This document shows positions 55,309 through 64,000 of a stretch of 64,000 nucleotides of DNA, piece by piece. Each line of letters opens with the position of its first letter. Within the stretch, counting starts at the first letter, position 1. Location of the stretch: the NCBI GenBank assembly GCA_026195895.1, contig JAPHRO010000030.1, positions 23,910-87,909 of the forward strand. Reading direction: 5' to 3'. A program made the position numbers and the translations under genes. Source of the DNA: Gammaproteobacteria bacterium (GTDB taxonomy: Bacteria > Pseudomonadota > Gammaproteobacteria > SZUA-229). Under the pieces are notes generated by a model that was not told the DNA's origin, made no database searches, and saw only the letters and a program-made list of their open reading frames with translations.

Positions 55309-55363
55309 GCGCGTAGCATAGCATTGCTGGACGGTGTTTTTTTATAAACCAGATCAATTTATT

Positions 55364-56119
55364 ATGAATTTAAAAACAGTTTTAATTTGCCTGGCTATTT
55401 TTGCACTTGGTTCCCCGGTACAGGCAAAAGAAGTTAGAACCATAGAGACCGACGATGTTGATCTTGATGTGCGTATATTCCCTGCCAAAGGTAATGTTTT
55501 GCTGCTCGGCTTCCCCTGTGATGAAGGCAGAAGTATTGCGGAAGAAAAAACTGCGGCGGCATTGGCCGAAGATGGGGTGGAAGTCTGGATGCCGGATATG
55601 CTGTCGGCCTTCATGTTGCCCAAGGTGCGCAGTAGTCTGGCCAATATTTCGACAGATGCGCTGCTGGCCCTGATTGATGAAGCAACCAGTACCGGTAAAC
55701 GGGTTTACCTGATTGCCAGTGGCCCCGACACCGAGCTGGTCTTACGCGGTGCCAGTCAATGGGAACAGGGCCATAAAAATACTGCTCTGGCAGGCGCGAT
55801 ACTCATGTTCCCTCGTTTGTTCAAAGCAGAACCTGAGCCGGGGAAAATACCGGAATATGTCGATGCGGTAGGTAAAACCCGATTGCCTATCATGTTACTG
55901 GAAGGTGAGCGCACGCCCAATCGCTGGGGCATCAATACCCTGAGTGAAGAATTACAAAAAAGCGGCAGCACGGTGAAAGCGGAAGTGATCCCGATGGTGC
56001 GCGGTTATTTTTTTAAACGACAGGATGCTAACTGGTCAGAAGACGTGGTGACCTCGCAAATGGCGGGACTGATCAAAGTAAGTTTATTTTATCTTGAGGA
56101 AAAAGAAATCAATGATTAA
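55364..56119 (+). CDS. Secreted alpha/beta-fold-like protein, stand-alone copy of the N-domain of 57207..58487
   Basis: Start at MNLKTV… (signal peptide). …AGVEVWMPDMLSAFMLPKVRSS… and …TGKRVYLIASGPDTELVLRGASQW… parallel …AGVEVWMVDLAESLYLPRGPST… and …TGKTIALIGRSYSAIPVLRGVRDW… in the fused gene. No canonical GxSxG nucleophile motif. Confidence 0.55.
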   Translation: MNLKTVLICLAIFALGSPVQAKEVRTIETDDVDLDVRIFPAKGNVLLLGFPCDEGRSIAEEKTAAALAEDGVEVWMPDMLSAFMLPKVRSSLANISTDALLALIDEATSTGKRVYLIASGPDTELVLRGASQWEQGHKNTALAGAILMFPRLFKAEPEPGKIPEYVDAVGKTRLPIMLLEGERTPNRWGINTLSEELQKSGSTVKAEVIPMVRGYFFKRQDANWSEDVVTSQMAGLIKVSLFYLEEKEIND

Positions 56120-56615
56120 ACGTTTATTCGTTTTCGCTATGCTAGTTAGTGTGACTGGGTTATTGCAGGCAAGCAATCTGAAACCTTACACGGCCAAAGG
56201 CCCGACGCCCCCGTTAGTATTGCAGGATTTGCAGGGCAATCTCCATGACCTGAAAGATTATAAAGGCCAGGTGGTGCTGGTTCAGTTCTGGGCGACTTAT
56301 TGTACGCCCTGCCGGAAGGAAATGCCGTCAATGAACAAGATGATGAAAAAAATGGGCAATGTACCATTTAAAATTCTTGCCGTTGATATGGGCGAAACCA
56401 GAGCGGAAGTGACGCAGTTTGTTAATGAAGTAAAACCCGAGTTTACTATCCTGATGGATGAGTCAGGTAAAAGCATTGCTGACTGGCGTGTATTTGCCGC
56501 GCCTTCAAATTTTATTCTCGATCCCGAAGGTAATATTCGTTATACCCTGTTTGGTGGTGTGGAATGGGATTCCGATGAGCTGGTGGATAAATTAAAAGCC
56601 CTGGCGACCAGGTGA
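56094..56615 (+). CDS. TlpA/DsbE-family periplasmic thiol:disulfide oxidoreductase
   Basis: 173 aa; signal peptide; WATYCTPC active site; thioredoxin fold with cis-Pro region. Overlaps the 3' end of the preceding gene (likely start at MIKRLF, 56112). Confidence 0.8.
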   Translation: MRKKKSMIKRLFVFAMLVSVTGLLQASNLKPYTAKGPTPPLVLQDLQGNLHDLKDYKGQVVLVQFWATYCTPCRKEMPSMNKMMKKMGNVPFKILAVDMGETRAEVTQFVNEVKPEFTILMDESGKSIADWRVFAAPSNFILDPEGNIRYTLFGGVEWDSDELVDKLKALATR

Positions 56616-57206: not shown

Positions 57207-58487
57207 TTGACTACTATGCGTTTTTTACTGTTACTGATGAGTTTCTGGCTGGCTGCGGCTCAGGCTGCGACCCAGGAATCTGCAGATGAATTATCGATAG
57301 CGGTTGATGATCAGGAATTAAATGTAACTCGGTTTGGCGCCACAGGTGCTCGGCTGGTAATCTGGATTATGCCCGGCTTCGGCGAGCCGGATCGAATGAT
57401 TACCAGCGCACAGCAACTGGCGCAGGCCGGGGTCGAAGTCTGGATGGTCGATCTGGCAGAAAGTTTATACCTGCCCAGAGGGCCATCAACCATGCGTAGT
57501 ATTGATGGTCGCTATGTTGCTGCGTTGATCGAAGCCGCCCACAAACAAACGGGCAAAACCATTGCGTTGATCGGCCGCAGTTATTCCGCTATTCCTGTGC
57601 TACGTGGTGTGCGTGACTGGCAGCAGAGTCAGCAACGGGCGGGAGCAACTAAGGCCTATGTATCAGGTGTGCTGCTGTTTTCGCCTGAATTGTACGCAAC
57701 CATACCGGCGCTGGGCCTGGATCCGATATTTGAACCCATTGCTCAGGCGACCAATGTTCCGATCATGTTATTCCAGGCAGGTAAACGCGGTAATCGCTGG
57801 CAACTGGATAATTTATTATCCCGCTTGCGTTCAGGTGGTGCCCAGGTGTTTGTGAAAATCATGCCTGGTGTGACCGGATTGTATTATCACGAAGACAGTG
57901 CGCCGGAAACACTGGCCATGCTGCAGCAGATGCCTAATCAGATAATTAACAGTCTGCGCCTGCTGGAAAATATACCCACGCCGCTGGTTGCTTTGCCCTT
58001 GCCGAAGCAGGCCAAAGCAAAAGGCCGCGGGCTGGATAATGCATTAAAACCTTTCCAGGGTAATCCAGAGCCGCCGCCGATTGCGTTAATCAATGCCCAG
58101 GGTAAAAAGCTAATCCGTAAAGATTATCGCGGCAAGGTTACGGTGATGAATTTCTGGGCTAGCTGGTGTCGGCCCTGTGTTGAGGAAATCCCTTCGTTAA
58201 ATAATTTGCGTAAAGCAATGGCCGGTCGGCCGTTCGAATTAATTTCGGTAAACTATGCAGAAGATACCGAACAAATCACCGACTTTCTAAAAATGGTAAA
58301 AGTTGAATTTCCTGTACTACTGGATACCGATGGCTCCGAATCAGCAAAATGGAATGTACTGGTATTTCCTTCTACCTTTGTCATTGGTCCCGATGGGCGT
58401 ATAGTTTACGGATTAAACGGCGCGATTCACTGGGATAGTCCCGAAATCGTCACACAATTAAAAGCGTTGTTGCCGAAATCAAAATAA
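57207..58487 (+). CDS. Fusion protein: secreted alpha/beta-fold-like domain + TlpA/DsbE thioredoxin domain
   Basis: 426 aa; signal peptide; N-domain paralogous to 55364..56119; C-domain NFWASWCRPCVEEIPSLN…SVNY…FPVLLD…FPSTFVIGPDGRI… (classical CcmG/DsbE-like WCxxC). Confidence 0.7.
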   Translation: MTTMRFLLLLMSFWLAAAQAATQESADELSIAVDDQELNVTRFGATGARLVIWIMPGFGEPDRMITSAQQLAQAGVEVWMVDLAESLYLPRGPSTMRSIDGRYVAALIEAAHKQTGKTIALIGRSYSAIPVLRGVRDWQQSQQRAGATKAYVSGVLLFSPELYATIPALGLDPIFEPIAQATNVPIMLFQAGKRGNRWQLDNLLSRLRSGGAQVFVKIMPGVTGLYYHEDSAPETLAMLQQMPNQIINSLRLLENIPTPLVALPLPKQAKAKGRGLDNALKPFQGNPEPPPIALINAQGKKLIRKDYRGKVTVMNFWASWCRPCVEEIPSLNNLRKAMAGRPFELISVNYAEDTEQITDFLKMVKVEFPVLLDTDGSESAKWNVLVFPSTFVIGPDGRIVYGLNGAIHWDSPEIVTQLKALLPKSK

Positions 58488-58826: not shown

Positions 58827-59073
58827 GCTGGTTTATTCATTATAAAAATCTTGTGCTAGCATGCGGATTCAATATAAAAATGGAACAGACTCAGGGAAAT
58901 AAGATTAGTCATTCAAACAGGGAAACAATCGACCTCAAAGCTGGTTTCACTCTATGGTAGTTCTGTCATACAATCAAATGACCGAAGCAGCAATAACTAT
59001 GCTACTCAATTCGACCATCAGGTATTTTTCTGAATGATTGTAAGTAATTTAGCCAATCACATTGGGGAAGATA

Positions 59074-60792
59074 ATGGTGACAAAAGATCAACTTCAGAAA
59101 AAAATTACCCCATTAGACGGCATGGATTACGGGGCCTATCAATCTTTGATTGGAACTTATGATTTTGATCGGTTTTCATTAATTATCGAGCAGATCCCAA
59201 AAGATCCTTACGCTCCTCCCCATACTGGAATTTATCGGATTCAATTTCCCCTGACTGATACGGCAATTGAAGCTGATATGATCGATTCAGGAATTGAGAA
59301 AATTGCCTGTCGTGATTTTTATGCCCGTCAATTTTTTTATAATAGTACTAAAATCGCAGGTCAAAGGCGGGGACCTGGTTATAGCGGTATCATAACTATC
59401 AATGAACCGGGGCAGACAATCCTGGAGAGAAGCTCGGTTGTCATTAATGAAAATAGTCTGGAAATCCGTTGCTTTGTTGGACTTCCAGCATCCAAAAGAA
59501 ATATCAAAGCCAGGCTGGCCGTTAAAATGTTGCTTGAAGAGCTACCGGAAATTGTCAGTTTGTCATTGCATCGGGGTCATACGGATAGTGATGATTTACT
59601 GTCTCACATACATACTGCCGTAGATGCAGAGTTTTTGCGGCAAAAACTGCCTGATATGGGCCTGGTGGCTTTTATAGCCGACGGTGCCATCCTGCCCAGG
59701 GAAAGCGGCATCAGTGACTGCACCATGAACAAAGACTCGGTCATACCATTTGAAACCCCTGAAAGTCTGAAAACTGAAATTGATCTGCCTTATGCTGGAA
59801 AAATAACCGGTATGGGAATCCCGCAAGGCATCACTCTGCTTGCCGGTGGTGGCTATCATGGTAAATCGACCCTGCTGCAGGCAATCGAGATGGGTGTGTA
59901 TAACCATATAGCCAGTGATGGTAGAGAACAGTGTGTATCGTTAACAGAGACTGTGAAAGTCAGATCCTATAGCGGCAGACATGTGGTTAAGACAGATATT
60001 TCCCCCTTTATCAGGAATCTCCCGTTTCGCGAAGATACCAGTGCTTTTTCAACCGAAAATGCCAGTGGCAGTACCTCCCAGGCGGCAAATATTATTGAGG
60101 CCATGGAGGTGGGTGCAAAAGTAATTCTGATGGATGAGGATACCTGTGCCACTAATTTTATGATTCGTGACATGTATATGCAGAAGCTGGTAAAAAAATC
60201 AGATGAACCGATTACTTCATATATAGATAAAGTTCGTCAGCTATATCTTGAAAAAAAGATATCGACAATTCTCGCATTGGGTGGAGTGGGAGATTATTTT
60301 GAAGTGGCAGATCATGTCATCCAGATGATTAAATATCATCCGCAAGATGTTTCTGCACAGGCAAAGGATATCATTCACAACTATCCAACAAAAAGAGTAA
60401 AAGAGGATATTGAATACCCCATTCAACCCAAAGCACGTATTCCAGTCGCTGAAAGTGTTGACCCGATGAGTGAGTATGGAAAATGGCGTCTTTATACGAC
60501 GGAGGTTAATACCCTGCATTTCGGCCAAAATAAAATCGATCTAACTGATCTTGAGCAGTTGATTGAGCTGTCACAGACAAAGGCGATTGGTTTTTCTATG
60601 CTTTATGCCAGGCAGTATATGGATGGGAAAAGAACTCTGAAGCAAGTCATTGATTTAGTTATGGCTGATCTTGAGGAAAATGGACTCGATATTCTCAATG
60701 AAAAGATTTCCGGACATTTTGCGCAGTTCCGCTCTTTTGAACTGGCATTTTCTTTGAACCGAATGCGCTCTTTTAACGTTAACCAGATATAG
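59074..60792 (+). CDS. ABC-class ATPase domain protein (PF09818-like 'predicted ATPase of the ABC class')
   Basis: ~572 aa; P-loop GGGYHGKSTLLQAIEMG in the middle of the protein; Walker B-like ILMDEDTCATNF; overall size and layout of the ABC_ATPase family; no transporter partner adjacent. Confidence 0.65.
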   Translation: MVTKDQLQKKITPLDGMDYGAYQSLIGTYDFDRFSLIIEQIPKDPYAPPHTGIYRIQFPLTDTAIEADMIDSGIEKIACRDFYARQFFYNSTKIAGQRRGPGYSGIITINEPGQTILERSSVVINENSLEIRCFVGLPASKRNIKARLAVKMLLEELPEIVSLSLHRGHTDSDDLLSHIHTAVDAEFLRQKLPDMGLVAFIADGAILPRESGISDCTMNKDSVIPFETPESLKTEIDLPYAGKITGMGIPQGITLLAGGGYHGKSTLLQAIEMGVYNHIASDGREQCVSLTETVKVRSYSGRHVVKTDISPFIRNLPFREDTSAFSTENASGSTSQAANIIEAMEVGAKVILMDEDTCATNFMIRDMYMQKLVKKSDEPITSYIDKVRQLYLEKKISTILALGGVGDYFEVADHVIQMIKYHPQDVSAQAKDIIHNYPTKRVKEDIEYPIQPKARIPVAESVDPMSEYGKWRLYTTEVNTLHFGQNKIDLTDLEQLIELSQTKAIGFSMLYARQYMDGKRTLKQVIDLVMADLEENGLDILNEKISGHFAQFRSFELAFSLNRMRSFNVNQI

Positions 60793-61141
60793 TGTTTAAA
60801 TTACCCGGTAGACATTCGTTTCTCACTACGCAACATTTTTCCGGCAATTGATGTGTTACTAAAGGTTTAGTTCTGGCCTTAATCGAAACTGAATTTTAAA
60901 ATATTCAAGTTCAGACAAAGGGGGAAGAAGGAAAAACCGGGTCAGAGTGAGCCGCCCCCAATAAATCGGACACTCAAAAACAGGAGTAATTGTGAAGTAC
61001 AGACCAGGGATTTCTAAATTATATTCCGAAGCATCAATCAGGAGTAAATTTAATAGTCGAATTATTGCTGAAACATTGTTATTAATAGCATTGCCCTGAA
61101 TATTTTCTGGGCGTTGACACAAATAATGGAGGTAAGTTGTC

Positions 61142-61726
61142 ATGGCTATTCCCTGGGCATTAAAACCAAGCAGCAAAAATGTAGTCGCCGATTATCATCA
61201 GTGGGTTAAAACCCATTACAAACTACACAACCGCAATCCATGTTTATGTAACTGGTTTCCATTGCGCATCCTGGTTGAATTTGCTGCTGAACATGGTGTA
61301 CGTCTGAAATTAATTTACTGGCCAGGCTCTGCTTCAACCACAGGCGGTCGCAGAGCATGGAATACTAAAAAAGAATTAGTCCATGATTCCCACGGCGGAA
61401 AATTCAATTCTAAAATAGCCTATCGACGAAAAGTAGAAAGCACAGTAACCGCGCGTATGATTGGTACGCTGAATACGTCAGCTATTTTGAAGGCTGAAGC
61501 CCGTGTGGGCGATTTGTTGTTACGAGATCTTACAGCCAGTTTTTGGCATATTGAATTAATCACCGATATAACGGGTAATGTGATTACTACCGAGGCGGGT
61601 AGTACGCCAGCGGTGGTGCCGAAGAACCATAAAGAGGTTTACGGGGACACGCTGACTGATGGTCGAAAACTTTACGAAAATAAACCCAGACGATGGGATT
61701 TTACCAGTATATGCAGTGGTGCGTGA
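61142..61726 (+). CDS. Hypothetical protein; candidate T6SS-associated Cys/His (papain-like) effector
   Basis: 194 aa; no signal peptide; N-terminal Cys pair (NPCLCNW), distal His/Asp (FWHIELITD); one gene away from tagH. Good SD (GGAGG) upstream. Confidence 0.35.
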   Translation: MAIPWALKPSSKNVVADYHQWVKTHYKLHNRNPCLCNWFPLRILVEFAAEHGVRLKLIYWPGSASTTGGRRAWNTKKELVHDSHGGKFNSKIAYRRKVESTVTARMIGTLNTSAILKAEARVGDLLLRDLTASFWHIELITDITGNVITTEAGSTPAVVPKNHKEVYGDTLTDGRKLYENKPRRWDFTSICSGA

Positions 61727-62107
61727 AGCCTGACAACTTTGGACCGATGGTGTTCCTGTTGATAATGCCGGACTGGTTGTCGGTGCGGGGCATGTTGTTG
61801 TTCTGGTCGGTATTCGAGCAAGTGCGACAGCGGACGAAACTTTTGATCTTAAAATTTATGATCACTGGCCACCGAATGTGGGTAACATGAGCTGGCGTCC
61901 GGGGAGTCACCTGTCAGCAATTGTTTCAGGTGTTGCCGGTAATCCAGATCGAAACATCTGTTTTCTGGTGAAAAGCTGATATTTGTCAGACGCGGTACTC
62001 GGTGTATTAATATTTAGCGGGCCTTGCGCGCCTGTTTTATCTAAACATGCCAAAAGCGTTGATAAAATACAAGGGTGCTTGTTTTTGGCTAATGCGTTAT
62101 TTTGATT

Positions 62108-63592
62108 TTATTTTGTGCTGTTTTTTGCCGCTTTCAGCTTGGCTACCTGTTGTTCATAGGCACGGCTAAACTCATCACCAAACAGGGTATGAAAATCATC
62201 TTCGACACTGGCAATGATTGCTTTGTAATGGGTGTTGAAGGCTTCCCAGTATTTCGCTTTTTTGCCACCTAGTGAAAAATCTTCGAGTGAAAAACTTTTT
62301 CCTTTTTCCCGCTGTTCGAAGTCCTGTTCCAGTATGATGGGATCGAACCGTTTCAAAACGGTGTGTAGCGCAGTTTGCATGCCGGCCATGACTGCAATCA
62401 TATGGGCTTCCAGGTCGTTAAAGCCTTCATCAACGGCCTGGATAGCAGGCATATAGCTTGATGATCCTGTAGAGAACATGTGATTAAGGGCATCCATTCC
62501 TGTAGGAGAAAACTTGATTGGATTGTTTTCCCGAGCCTGGATGGTTGTTAAGGACATGCGGAATTCGCTTTTAATACTGGCGCGCGCGCGCAGTACCGCG
62601 ACCAGTCCTTCTACTGATGCGCGTACCAGTTGTCCGGCCTGAAGGGCCAGGGCCGCTTCTTCTTCTGGTGTTAGAGAAAGATGTTCCAGCCCCATGCCCT
62701 TAAGCAAATTTTCCATTGCCCTGGTATTGCTACTCGTCAGTACTGATGCGGGTGTAGTTGATCGTGCCGACGGTGCGGGTCTGGCTGATGCCTTGTCGGG
62801 CGTTTCTACCTCTGCTGGTGGTGGAGTTTGACTGGGTGCACCGTACTGCCAGTTATTCGGGATAATAGGGCTGGCGCCATTCTCCGGCGGAGATTGTGGG
62901 GCCGGCGGGCTGACAGGCGGGGGCTCGAACTGTTGCTGCAATGGTGAGGCGTTATCGCCGCCGGTACTCGACAGAATATGTTGGTCATCCCCCGGTGTCG
63001 GTGTATCGAAAGGCGATGATGGGTTTAATTCACCAAGACCAAGATCATCGATGCTGCCAGGATCACTGGTTTTTTTTGGGGTGGTGGAATGGGCTGAGCC
63101 ATTCAACACCGCAAGTGGATCAAGCAGTTTTTCTCCGCCTACGTGAAAGGATGATGTTTCATTCAGGTGGCCAAGATCATCTGTTGATACGGGGTCGTCT
63201 GGCAAAGTTGAGCTGCCGTTGGGATTGCCTGCATGTTCAAATGGGGAGCTATCTGGATTGCCTAATGGCAGTGATGCGTCTGCCTGGATAGTAACAGAGA
63301 TATCGTAGGGTCCTATCCGTATACTATCGCCATGGCTAAGTTTAATTTGGTTGCCTTTACCTAATGCTTCAGTTGCATCATTAATAAATACACCATTGGT
63401 ACTGAGATCAGTCAGGAAATAGTCGCCATTGCTACTACTAATCTGGGCGTGTTTGCCTGAGGCGAGTCGCTCTGGGTCGACAAGTACCCAGGTATTTTCA
63501 GATGAACGACCAATCGTTCCTTCTGTATGAAAGGCTGCGCTAATCTCCTGACCTGGGTTAGGTTTATTTAAGATCGTTAGTATTAAGCTCAT
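62108..63592 (-). CDS. tagH: Type VI secretion system-associated FHA-domain protein TagH
   Basis: 494 aa; N-terminal FHA (…IGRSSENTWVLVD…ISSSNGDYFLTDLSTNGVFIN…); long Pro-rich linker; conserved TagH-type C-terminal domain (…LGGKKAKYWEAFNTHYKAI…FGDEFSRAYEQQ…). Confidence 0.65.
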   Translation of the reverse strand: MSLILTILNKPNPGQEISAAFHTEGTIGRSSENTWVLVDPERLASGKHAQISSSNGDYFLTDLSTNGVFINDATEALGKGNQIKLSHGDSIRIGPYDISVTIQADASLPLGNPDSSPFEHAGNPNGSSTLPDDPVSTDDLGHLNETSSFHVGGEKLLDPLAVLNGSAHSTTPKKTSDPGSIDDLGLGELNPSSPFDTPTPGDDQHILSSTGGDNASPLQQQFEPPPVSPPAPQSPPENGASPIIPNNWQYGAPSQTPPPAEVETPDKASARPAPSARSTTPASVLTSSNTRAMENLLKGMGLEHLSLTPEEEAALALQAGQLVRASVEGLVAVLRARASIKSEFRMSLTTIQARENNPIKFSPTGMDALNHMFSTGSSSYMPAIQAVDEGFNDLEAHMIAVMAGMQTALHTVLKRFDPIILEQDFEQREKGKSFSLEDFSLGGKKAKYWEAFNTHYKAIIASVEDDFHTLFGDEFSRAYEQQVAKLKAAKNSTK

Positions 63593-63982
63593 TTAAGCGG
63601 GCCTTAATCTATTCCGTCAGTAGATTTCACTGTGTGCTGTATGCCTGTTCTGAATGTATCAAACTAATACCCATCGATGATTTTGCTACTATACATCTGC
63701 TATGGAGTGGCGATATTAATATATCTTATGTTTATGATTATGGAGCGAAGTTCAGGTGTTGTCCAATACGTCGGATTAGCCTCATTGCAATAGCGGGGAT
63801 AGTTGAATTATGGTGGCAAAGTATGAAAATTGGGTGGTCGGGCAATACGCATCTCCGGCTGCTGTCGATTTGAAAGAAGTGGTTGATTTGTATAGAACCT
63901 CAGGATTCCAGAAGCCATGTTTCACATTGATATATGTGCCAGTTTTGAAGTGCGTATAGAAATTGCCAGGAGACGGCCAGAA

Positions 63983-64000
63983 ATGGCGGAAAGTGTGGAA
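63983..64000 (+). CDS. Start of a divergent ORF (MAESVE…), possibly T6SS sheath subunit tssB; truncated by the window end
   Basis: ATG with a strong SD (AGGAGA-n9-ATG) 390 bp from the tagH start on the opposite strand. Only 6 codons are visible. Confidence 0.2.

Follow-up and report, generated by a model that had tools for sequence, protein, structure and literature searches.

At the right-hand end of a 64,000-nucleotide stretch of gammaproteobacterial DNA (contig JAPHRO010000030.1; the whole stretch is hereafter the window), a small intact gene lies beside tagH, a type VI secretion system (T6SS) gene. What does this small gene encode, and is its product an effector of that system? An earlier note, made from the sequence alone, had suggested a papain-like amidase effector of the Tae type. 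The gene is real and complete, and lies far beyond a chance open reading frame (ORF). Its product, a protein of 194 residues, represents by sequence comparison a new family, with neither a Pfam or NCBIfam model nor a solved relative that sequence can detect. We predict, with somewhat more confidence than doubt, that the protein cleaves peptidoglycan after delivery by a T6SS. The features on which the argument turns are the following.

61142..61726, plus strand: gene of the 194-residue NlpC/P60-CHAP-like protein, an intact ORF with a Shine-Dalgarno (SD) sequence, GGAGGT, at 61128-61133.
61127..61729, plus strand: putative transferable unit, running from the SD sequence to the TGA stop codon at 61727-61729, as delimited by pairwise DNA alignment with locus L019.
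61734..61979, plus strand: start-less frame of 81 codons, shifted +1 relative to the 194-residue ORF.
62108..63592, minus strand: TagH gene, a 494-residue ORF, convergent with the 194-residue ORF.

The 194-residue protein has a mass of 21.9 kDa and an isoelectric point of 9.7, and inspection shows no hydrophobic signal at its N-terminus, in keeping with its earlier description as non-secreted. A word-indexed search of 5.8 billion proteins returned 25 homologues with 45-85% identity, all metagenomic, nearly all 193-199 residues long, and none with a Pfam annotation. The stand-alone homologues align with the window protein from end to end and finish at the same position (alignment A1). At the level of DNA, the alignment with L019, whose protein is 85% identical, starts at the SD sequence (about 61127) and ends with the stop codon (61729); identity is high between these limits, and outside them the two sequences show no relationship (pairwise alignment A2). 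As this homology is bounded by the SD sequence and the stop codon, the ORF is neither truncated nor frameshifted. The unit that moves between genomes appears, on these alignments, to be the SD sequence and the coding sequence only, and a self-contained gene acquired horizontally is the best explanation. The family is both rare and patchy, with 25 close sequences in 5.8 billion and one match among 185,579 species genomes.

These alignments also bear on the start-less frame. The earlier note suggested that this frame might be a frameshifted immunity or partner gene, or the product of a programmed shift, which would make it one gene, or a toxin/immunity pair, with the 194-residue ORF. The frame is open and begins 5 nt after the TGA. 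It offers no start for 48 codons, close to the 50 or so first described, its first starts being a GTG at codon 49 and an ATG at codon 52. Its codon usage is coding-like, at 0.199 bits per codon against 0.16 for the 194-residue gene and an off-frame 95th percentile of 0.117. The stand-alone homologues, however, all stop alike and show no longer form, the fused forms described below also end at the domain end, and the DNA identity with L019 collapses right after the stop codon, where L019 has no ORF. Nor does the frame resemble the 194-residue family (hhalign probability 0.1%). No homologue of it was found in the word-indexed search, the PDB or plasmids, the best tblastn match across the fetched loci stood at E 0.16, and the neighbours of the homologues, upstream and downstream, are unrelated to it. 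Shuffling 61727-62107 gives an open frame of 82 codons or more in 21.6% of cases, so its length is not beyond chance. We consider a single gene or a toxin/immunity pair, whether frameshifted or joined by a programmed shift, largely ruled out by the homologue ends, by L019 and by the lack of family similarity, and leave it a very small probability.

The fold of the 194-residue protein was approached through an AlphaFold2 model (predicted local distance difference test score, 91.3). The model predicts a papain-like alpha+beta fold of the kind seen in solved NlpC/P60 and CHAP enzymes. In the structure comparison, the top 20 neighbours are peptidoglycan endopeptidases or binders. MagC/DUF1175 is the best match, CHAP lysins score about 7, and the T6SS effectors Tse1/Tae1 and Tae3 score 7.0 and 5.9, respectively. 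Sequence searches of the PDB found no match at E up to 10, and the sub-threshold Pfam matches of family members are to CHAP (best 0.075) and Amidase_6 (best 0.008).

The residues expected of such an enzyme can be followed through an alignment of 93 domain copies, close and distant. The motifs NPCLC, near the N-terminus, and FWHIELITD, distally, are present in the protein as first reported. C36, the second Cys of NPCLC, is conserved in 76/77 copies, as is H136 of FWHIE, also 76/77, and G123-D124 (79/79) and N111 (77/80) are comparably fixed. In the model, C36 immediately precedes helix 38-51, and the strand of the invariant G123-D124 is followed by strand 135-144, with H136 at its opening. Position 151 is Glu in the window protein and Gln, Glu or His in 46 of 75 copies, with Tyr or Arg in the others, which makes E151 a possible candidate for a third catalytic residue; the Asp of 'ITD' is variable across the alignment. 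The proposed Cys…His…Asp arrangement is thereby upheld for the Cys region and the His, within a canonical fold, and abandoned for the Asp. As modelled, the order is the non-permuted Cys-then-His order of canonical NlpC/P60-CHAP enzymes. This is the order of the canonical peptidoglycan-cleaving branch, the permuted branch being lipid-targeting (PMC12994826), and it would place the 194-residue protein in the former.

The protein can be compared with known systems. Relative to Tae1-Tae4 (Tse1/Tae1, PDB 3vpi; Tae3, PDB 4hz9), the 194-residue protein has no Pfam family match, and its likeness is at the level of the fold only. It is structurally closer to housekeeping NlpC/P60 endopeptidases and to MagC, and it is larger, its Cys and His standing about 100 residues apart with a conserved DSHGG/TARMIG insert in between. 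In the window there is also no adjacent periplasmic gene like the Tai immunity genes. What it shares with Tae effectors is genetic linkage to T6SS genes, namely tagH here and clpV in L021 and L022. Lacking a Pfam match, the protein cannot be placed in a Tae family by sequence; membership of Tae1-4 is not demonstrated, and the Tae-type placement has been dropped. From the NlpC/P60 DL-endopeptidases, such as E. coli MepS/Spr, B. subtilis LytE/CwlO and M. tuberculosis RipB, it differs in an identity of 11-18%, below the detection of Pfam NLPC_P60, in the absence of a signal peptide or lipobox, and in an extra N-terminal helix (14-29) and a C-terminal RRW motif. Its family is, moreover, distributed like a toxin cassette. 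In contrast to MagC/DUF1175 of P. aeruginosa (PDB 7bk8), which is inactive (PMC10318531), the family keeps Cys and His in nearly all copies, as counted above; the window protein has no Pfam DUF1175 match, and the window holds no mag operon.

Distant copies of the domain occur at the ends of large proteins. Searched in full with HMMER, 1.84 billion representatives yielded only 63 proteins that match the domain profile, and in carriers of 532-2495 residues the domain occupies the extreme C-terminus, the last 190 residues or so. The long carriers, with their lengths in residues, are listed here.

About 1200 residues: P0026 (1188), P0030 (1265), P0038 (1266), P0042 (1202) and P0043 (1177).
Other lengths: P0029 (695), P0032 (663), P0028 (532), P0051 (805), P0057 (2495) and P0066 (1891).

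RHS repeats are found in P0057 and P0066, and a PG_binding_1 module stands just upstream of the domain in P0029 and P0032. P0059, a distant member, combines LGFP cell-wall-binding repeats with a CHAP match at E 3e-4. Six shorter matches (P0048, P0049, P0053, P0054, P0058 and P0063) carry the Rhs tip motif (..YDPxxGRF..DPxGL) directly before the domain. In the Rhs toxin of L031, the domain starts right after '..NFIDMKGD', and an ORF of 153 residues with an N-terminal hydrophobic segment overlaps the toxin gene by 10 nt, which is the classical position of an immunity gene. This ORF belongs to a cassette array (L031:12479-15732), in which it is followed by an orphan Rhs tip bearing a VanY D-Ala-D-Ala carboxypeptidase domain, a 119-residue ORF with a signal-like N-terminus, a further YD-shell fragment and a transposase. 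The single match among the species genomes is a 1273-residue ORF of a Phycisphaerales metagenome-assembled genome (L008:6764-10585), which also ends in the domain. By sequence, such a distribution is characteristic of the C-terminal domains of polymorphic toxins.

Tox-NlpC/P60 tips have already been catalogued, with T6SS, PVC and TcdB/TcaC delivery and no immunity family assigned in the survey table (PMC3482391). The present domain is like them in being an NlpC/P60-type domain at the C-terminus of Rhs-type toxins. The window protein differs in standing alone rather than fused, and the likeness is one of description.

We also observed that several carriers, most of them about 1200 residues long, have no Pfam domain at all (L008, P0026, P0030, P0038, P0042, P0043, P0028 and P0035). 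They share a '…VFAEAVLGxSNxAEKLDITR…' segment, to which L008 adds a long Gly/Ala-rich stretch, and they look like an undescribed delivery scaffold.

The carriers and the fold together bear on what the toxin would attack. It may be a toxin with another target, acting as a deamidase, transglutaminase, protease or lipid-acyl hydrolase, possibly in eukaryotic prey. NlpC/P60 phospholipase toxins of T6SSs do exist, namely Tox-Act1 and TseH (PMC12994826). A target other than peptidoglycan would also remove the need for self-immunity, and no immunity gene stands beside the stand-alone forms. The catalytic order is, however, canonical and not permuted, and the nearest structures are those of peptidoglycan enzymes and binders. 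The domain is also fused directly to PG_binding_1 and LGFP modules, and the hydrophobic N-terminus of the immunity-position ORF in L031 suggests extracytoplasmic action. We regard another target as quite improbable.

The second part of the question concerns the T6SS. The identity of TagH is confirmed and ordinary. The product of 62108..63592, named TagH at NCBI (MCW9013749.1), has a Pfam FHA domain at residues 26-94 (E 1.3e-14), a T6SS_FHA_C domain at residues 298-482 (E 9.9e-57) and a Pro-rich linker between them. Over its full length it matches the NCBIfam equivalog TIGR03354 (E 1.2e-97; 328.4 bits against a cut-off of 120.25). It thus has the same complete architecture as TagH/Fha1, and the three-part description with which it was first recognized is borne out. 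Its closest relatives are 73% (L010) and 55% (L011) identical, a near-identical TagH is present on a Logan contig (P0087), and a metagenome scan with TagH returned relatives only.

In the related complete clusters L015 and L016, tagH is followed by tssJ-tssK-tssL-tssM and faces tssA-tssB-tssC-hcp, whereas the window tagH has no following T6SS genes and is alone on its own strand. Divergent to tagH in L010 (303-2306) and L011 (1217-3142), we noted a gene for a 640-667-residue protein that resembles, by eye, a two-partner-secretion transporter of the ShlB/FhaC (TpsB) type. Because L015/L016 and L010/L011 differ, the gene order around tagH is not fixed. Sixteen proteins from two related loci, L015 and L021, comprising T6SS core proteins (tssA, B, C, E, F, G, J, K, L, M, hcp and clpV) and the products of neighbouring ORFs, were used as tblastn queries, and they detected no further T6SS core gene in the 64 kb. 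With tagH as the sole T6SS gene of the window, any cluster can only lie beyond the window end, and it is a reasonable expectation that tagH marks the edge of one.

The 194-residue gene ends 381 bp from the 3' end of tagH. Two further placements are of the same kind. A 53%-identical homologue in L021 follows impE-tssE-tssF-tssG-clpV on the same strand, 90 bp past clpV, and a 55%-identical homologue follows clpV in L022 to L024. T6SS clusters occupy less than 1% of a genome, so two independent placements next to T6SS genes, one at tagH and one at clpV, appear non-random.

Having neither a signal peptide nor a trafficking domain, the 194-residue protein would, in our preferred reading, leave the cell as a small cargo effector, carried by the T6SS of which tagH forms part. 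In the periplasm of the target cell, it would cut peptide or amide bonds of peptidoglycan. Cys36, at the N-terminus of helix 38-51, would act as the nucleophile; His136, opening the strand after G123-D124, would be the general base, and the third residue may be E151. We infer the catalytic activity, the peptidoglycan substrate and the T6SS-dependent export, and hold the prediction as a whole to be slightly favoured.

Several observations weigh against it. The window shows tagH and no other T6SS gene, the 194-residue gene is convergent with tagH and not co-transcribed with it, and in most homologue contexts (L001-3, L004, L005/6, L007, L020, L025-27 and L028-30) no T6SS gene lies within reach. 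Neither Pfam nor NCBIfam gives the protein a match, even with E values of up to 1 allowed, and members of its family reach no NLPC_P60, CHAP or Tae model threshold in those databases. MagC/DUF1175, the best structural match, is a catalytically inactive peptidoglycan binder (PMC10318531), and Foldseek searches of the PDB gave weak E-values (0.024 at best), though they point to the same kind of fold. No immunity-like gene was found beside the stand-alone homologues in about 10 contexts, where the adjacent ORFs are mutually unrelated. The window itself has no adjacent immunity gene, and no intact ORF between 61727 and tagH.

Part of this evidence would also be expected if the protein were a toxin module of the same kind that is not a T6SS substrate here. 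It would then be an orphan polymorphic-toxin cassette, with the position of tagH incidental, which may serve as a recombination reservoir or may be delivered by a PVC-like extracellular contractile injection system or by an Rhs-type carrier. Besides the scarcity of T6SS genes around most homologues, the non-T6SS-specific scaffolds (the Pfam-less proteins of about 1200 residues, BACON/InlB-repeat proteins and LGFP proteins) speak for this, as do the mobile elements that are often neighbours: IS200-like, IS91 and DDE transposases are among them, and transposases occur near homologues in L004, L022, L025 and L026. The homology with L019, limited to the SD sequence and the coding sequence, is cassette-like, and Tox-NlpC/P60 is listed with several delivery systems (PMC3482391). 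The gene nevertheless has its own conserved SD sequence and ATG and is conserved over its full length in 25 homologues, which points to independent expression, and two independent placements beside T6SS genes, at tagH and at clpV (L021 and L022), would be unlikely by chance. We judge the orphan cassette unlikely, while granting it a real share of the probability.

A different explanation is that the protein is not a toxin at all, being a cytoplasmic hydrolase for murein-peptide recycling, like B. subtilis YkfC, or an amidase acting on a small thiol/polyamine conjugate, like the CHAP amidase of glutathionylspermidine synthetase. Such an enzyme would need no immunity gene, and neither an adjacent immunity gene nor a signal peptide is present. 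In L001 and L025 the homologues are near genes for M14 carboxypeptidases, a family that includes murein-peptide amidases. A housekeeping role does not fit the extreme rarity and patchiness of the family (25 in 5.8 billion; one match in 185,579 species genomes) or its unconserved neighbourhoods. The domain is also a C-terminal Rhs tip with an immunity-position ORF after it, and its fusion to the extracytoplasmic PG_binding_1 and LGFP modules does not fit a cytoplasmic enzyme. On this evidence, we consider a cytoplasmic role improbable.

Several neighbourhoods of the stand-alone homologues are of a conflict or mobile type. In L001 (7600-10591), a trypsin-like gene, a 105-residue ORF and an M14 gene precede the homologue, which follows 19 nt on, and in L025 (2821-7555) an M14 carboxypeptidase gene lies 1.1 kb downstream of the homologue. 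The two 105-residue ORFs are unrelated, and these homologues may belong to a set of peptide- or cell-wall-degrading enzymes. An Amidase_2 gene is found in the neighbourhood of the L020 homologue. In L028-L030, the homologue lies directly downstream of genes for a LodA-like (lysine-oxidase-type antimicrobial) protein and a flavoprotein, which form a LodA/LodB-like operon and a neighbourhood of the antagonism type.

The question of immunity deserves separate attention. The absence of a linked immunity gene speaks most strongly against a classical effector of the Tae type, and it is atypical for a periplasmic toxin that would harm its own producer. An ORF in the immunity position exists for the distant, Rhs-borne copy in L031 and for neither the stand-alone clade nor the window, where the 153-residue candidate of L031 has no match.

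What, then, is the start-less frame, if it is not an immunity gene? It is unannotated at NCBI, the accessions of its neighbours being consecutive (MCW9013748.1 and MCW9013749.1), and the region has no synteny with that downstream of tagH in L010. It begins where the homology with L019 ends, and therefore belongs to the recipient locus and not to the 194-residue gene. Within it, 'GAGHVVVLVG' followed by D..W gives a sub-threshold match to Peptidase_C70 (E 0.022; 15.1 bits, where the cut-off is 19). The match covers profile positions 91-126 of 141, the region of the His strand, and the Cys-bearing N-terminal part is absent. At even weight, we infer that the frame is what is left of the 3' end of another papain-like gene, truncated on its 5' side; the 5' part would have been lost on the arrival of the 194-residue cassette or on its recombination into the locus. 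Otherwise, it would be no more than a meaningless open frame.

To the right of tagH, the window closes with two further features.

63593..63982, no strand: divergent intergenic region of 390 bp between tagH and a rightward ORF, read from the sequence.
63983..64000, plus strand: start of the MAESVE ORF, six codons (ATG GCG GAA AGT GTG GAA), from the sequence.

The opening of an ORF with an SD sequence in the last 18 nt, to which the earlier note had drawn attention as a possible tssB, is present: the ATG at 63983 is preceded by AGGAGA at 63968-63973 with a 9-nt spacer. The frame is open from 63896, after a stop codon at 63893-63895, and contains an earlier in-frame ATG at 63917 (MFHIDICASFEVRIEIARRRPE-MAESVE). 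Because that ATG lacks a good SD sequence, 63983 is the likelier start, though the true start of the rightward gene is not certain. An N-terminus like MAESVE was looked for in all fetched loci, and none was found. In L015, one related and complete cluster, tssA and not tssB is divergent from tagH, and its tssB starts MGSQSSQKF. Six codons cannot tell tssB from tssA or another gene.

To the left, an ABC_ATPase/MRB1590-type protein (Pfam) is encoded at 59062..60792. The 1.3-kb gap that separates this housekeeping-type gene (ending at 60792) from the 3' end of tagH forms a variable spot, which would house both the 194-residue cassette and the gene remnant. Still further left, the genes are unrelated to T6SSs and encode a YccV/HspQ-like protein and thioredoxin-fold proteins. 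In this part of the window, what look like split and fused paralogues lie at 55334-56615 and 57207-58487. The N-terminal half of a 426-residue protein (57207..58487) is 31% identical (E 4e-27) to a 261-residue protein (55334..56119). The C-terminal AhpC/TSA-Redoxin (TlpA-like) domain of the 426-residue protein agrees in architecture with the separate 173-residue protein (56094..56615), whose ORF overlaps the 261-residue ORF by 26 nt. The N-terminal module has no Pfam match.

Within the variable spot, a minus-strand ORF of 105 codons (60859..61176) fills the spacer of low G+C content (37.5%) upstream of the 194-residue gene and overlaps the start of that gene. An ORF of such length appears in 1.1% of shuffles. 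It is probably spurious, since its codon usage is poor (0.025), a search found no homologue, and it has no counterpart in L019. In the same spacer (60978-61099) there is a 12-nt direct repeat, AAACAGGAGTAA / AATCAGGAGTAA, whose copies are separated by 58 nt. An SD-like AGGAG, contributed by the first copy, stands 5 nt ahead of a 35-codon ORF with a GTG start, 60992..61099 (VKYRPGISKLYSEASIRSKFNSRIIAETLLLIALP). Scans of 58.8-64 kb for RNA elements and repeats gave nothing meaningful. Terminator-like sites number 8 against 3.4 in shuffles, nearly all of them inside coding sequences. The promoter scan found one sigma-70-like site upstream of tagH (minus strand, 63765..63737; a 10/12 match), and the count of such sites is not above that of shuffles.

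The mechanism proposed here is not new, as NlpC/P60 toxins delivered by T6SSs or carried by Rhs proteins are already familiar; the novelty lies in the sequence family, with its confidently predicted fold and clear catalytic candidates in C36 and H136. On at least four types of carrier this family behaves as a toxin module, and its stand-alone form lacks linked immunity for no evident reason. That the stand-alone clade is a cell-wall- or envelope-active T6SS toxin kept without a linked immunity gene is a doubtful proposition. Such a toxin may cut a bond that its producers do not expose, for example one belonging to a peptidoglycan chemotype or modification found in other phyla; or else protection may be non-genetic or may come from elsewhere in the genome. 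If true, a portable effector cassette, made up of an SD sequence and a coding sequence, would hop between T6SS clusters, Rhs tips and the Pfam-less carriers of about 1200 residues, and this immunity-free cassette would span Proteobacteria, Bacteroidota-like genomes and Planctomycetota. The family could join the catalogues of effectors and toxin domains, and the locus would illustrate how exchanged cassettes and gene remnants accumulate at the border of a T6SS cluster.

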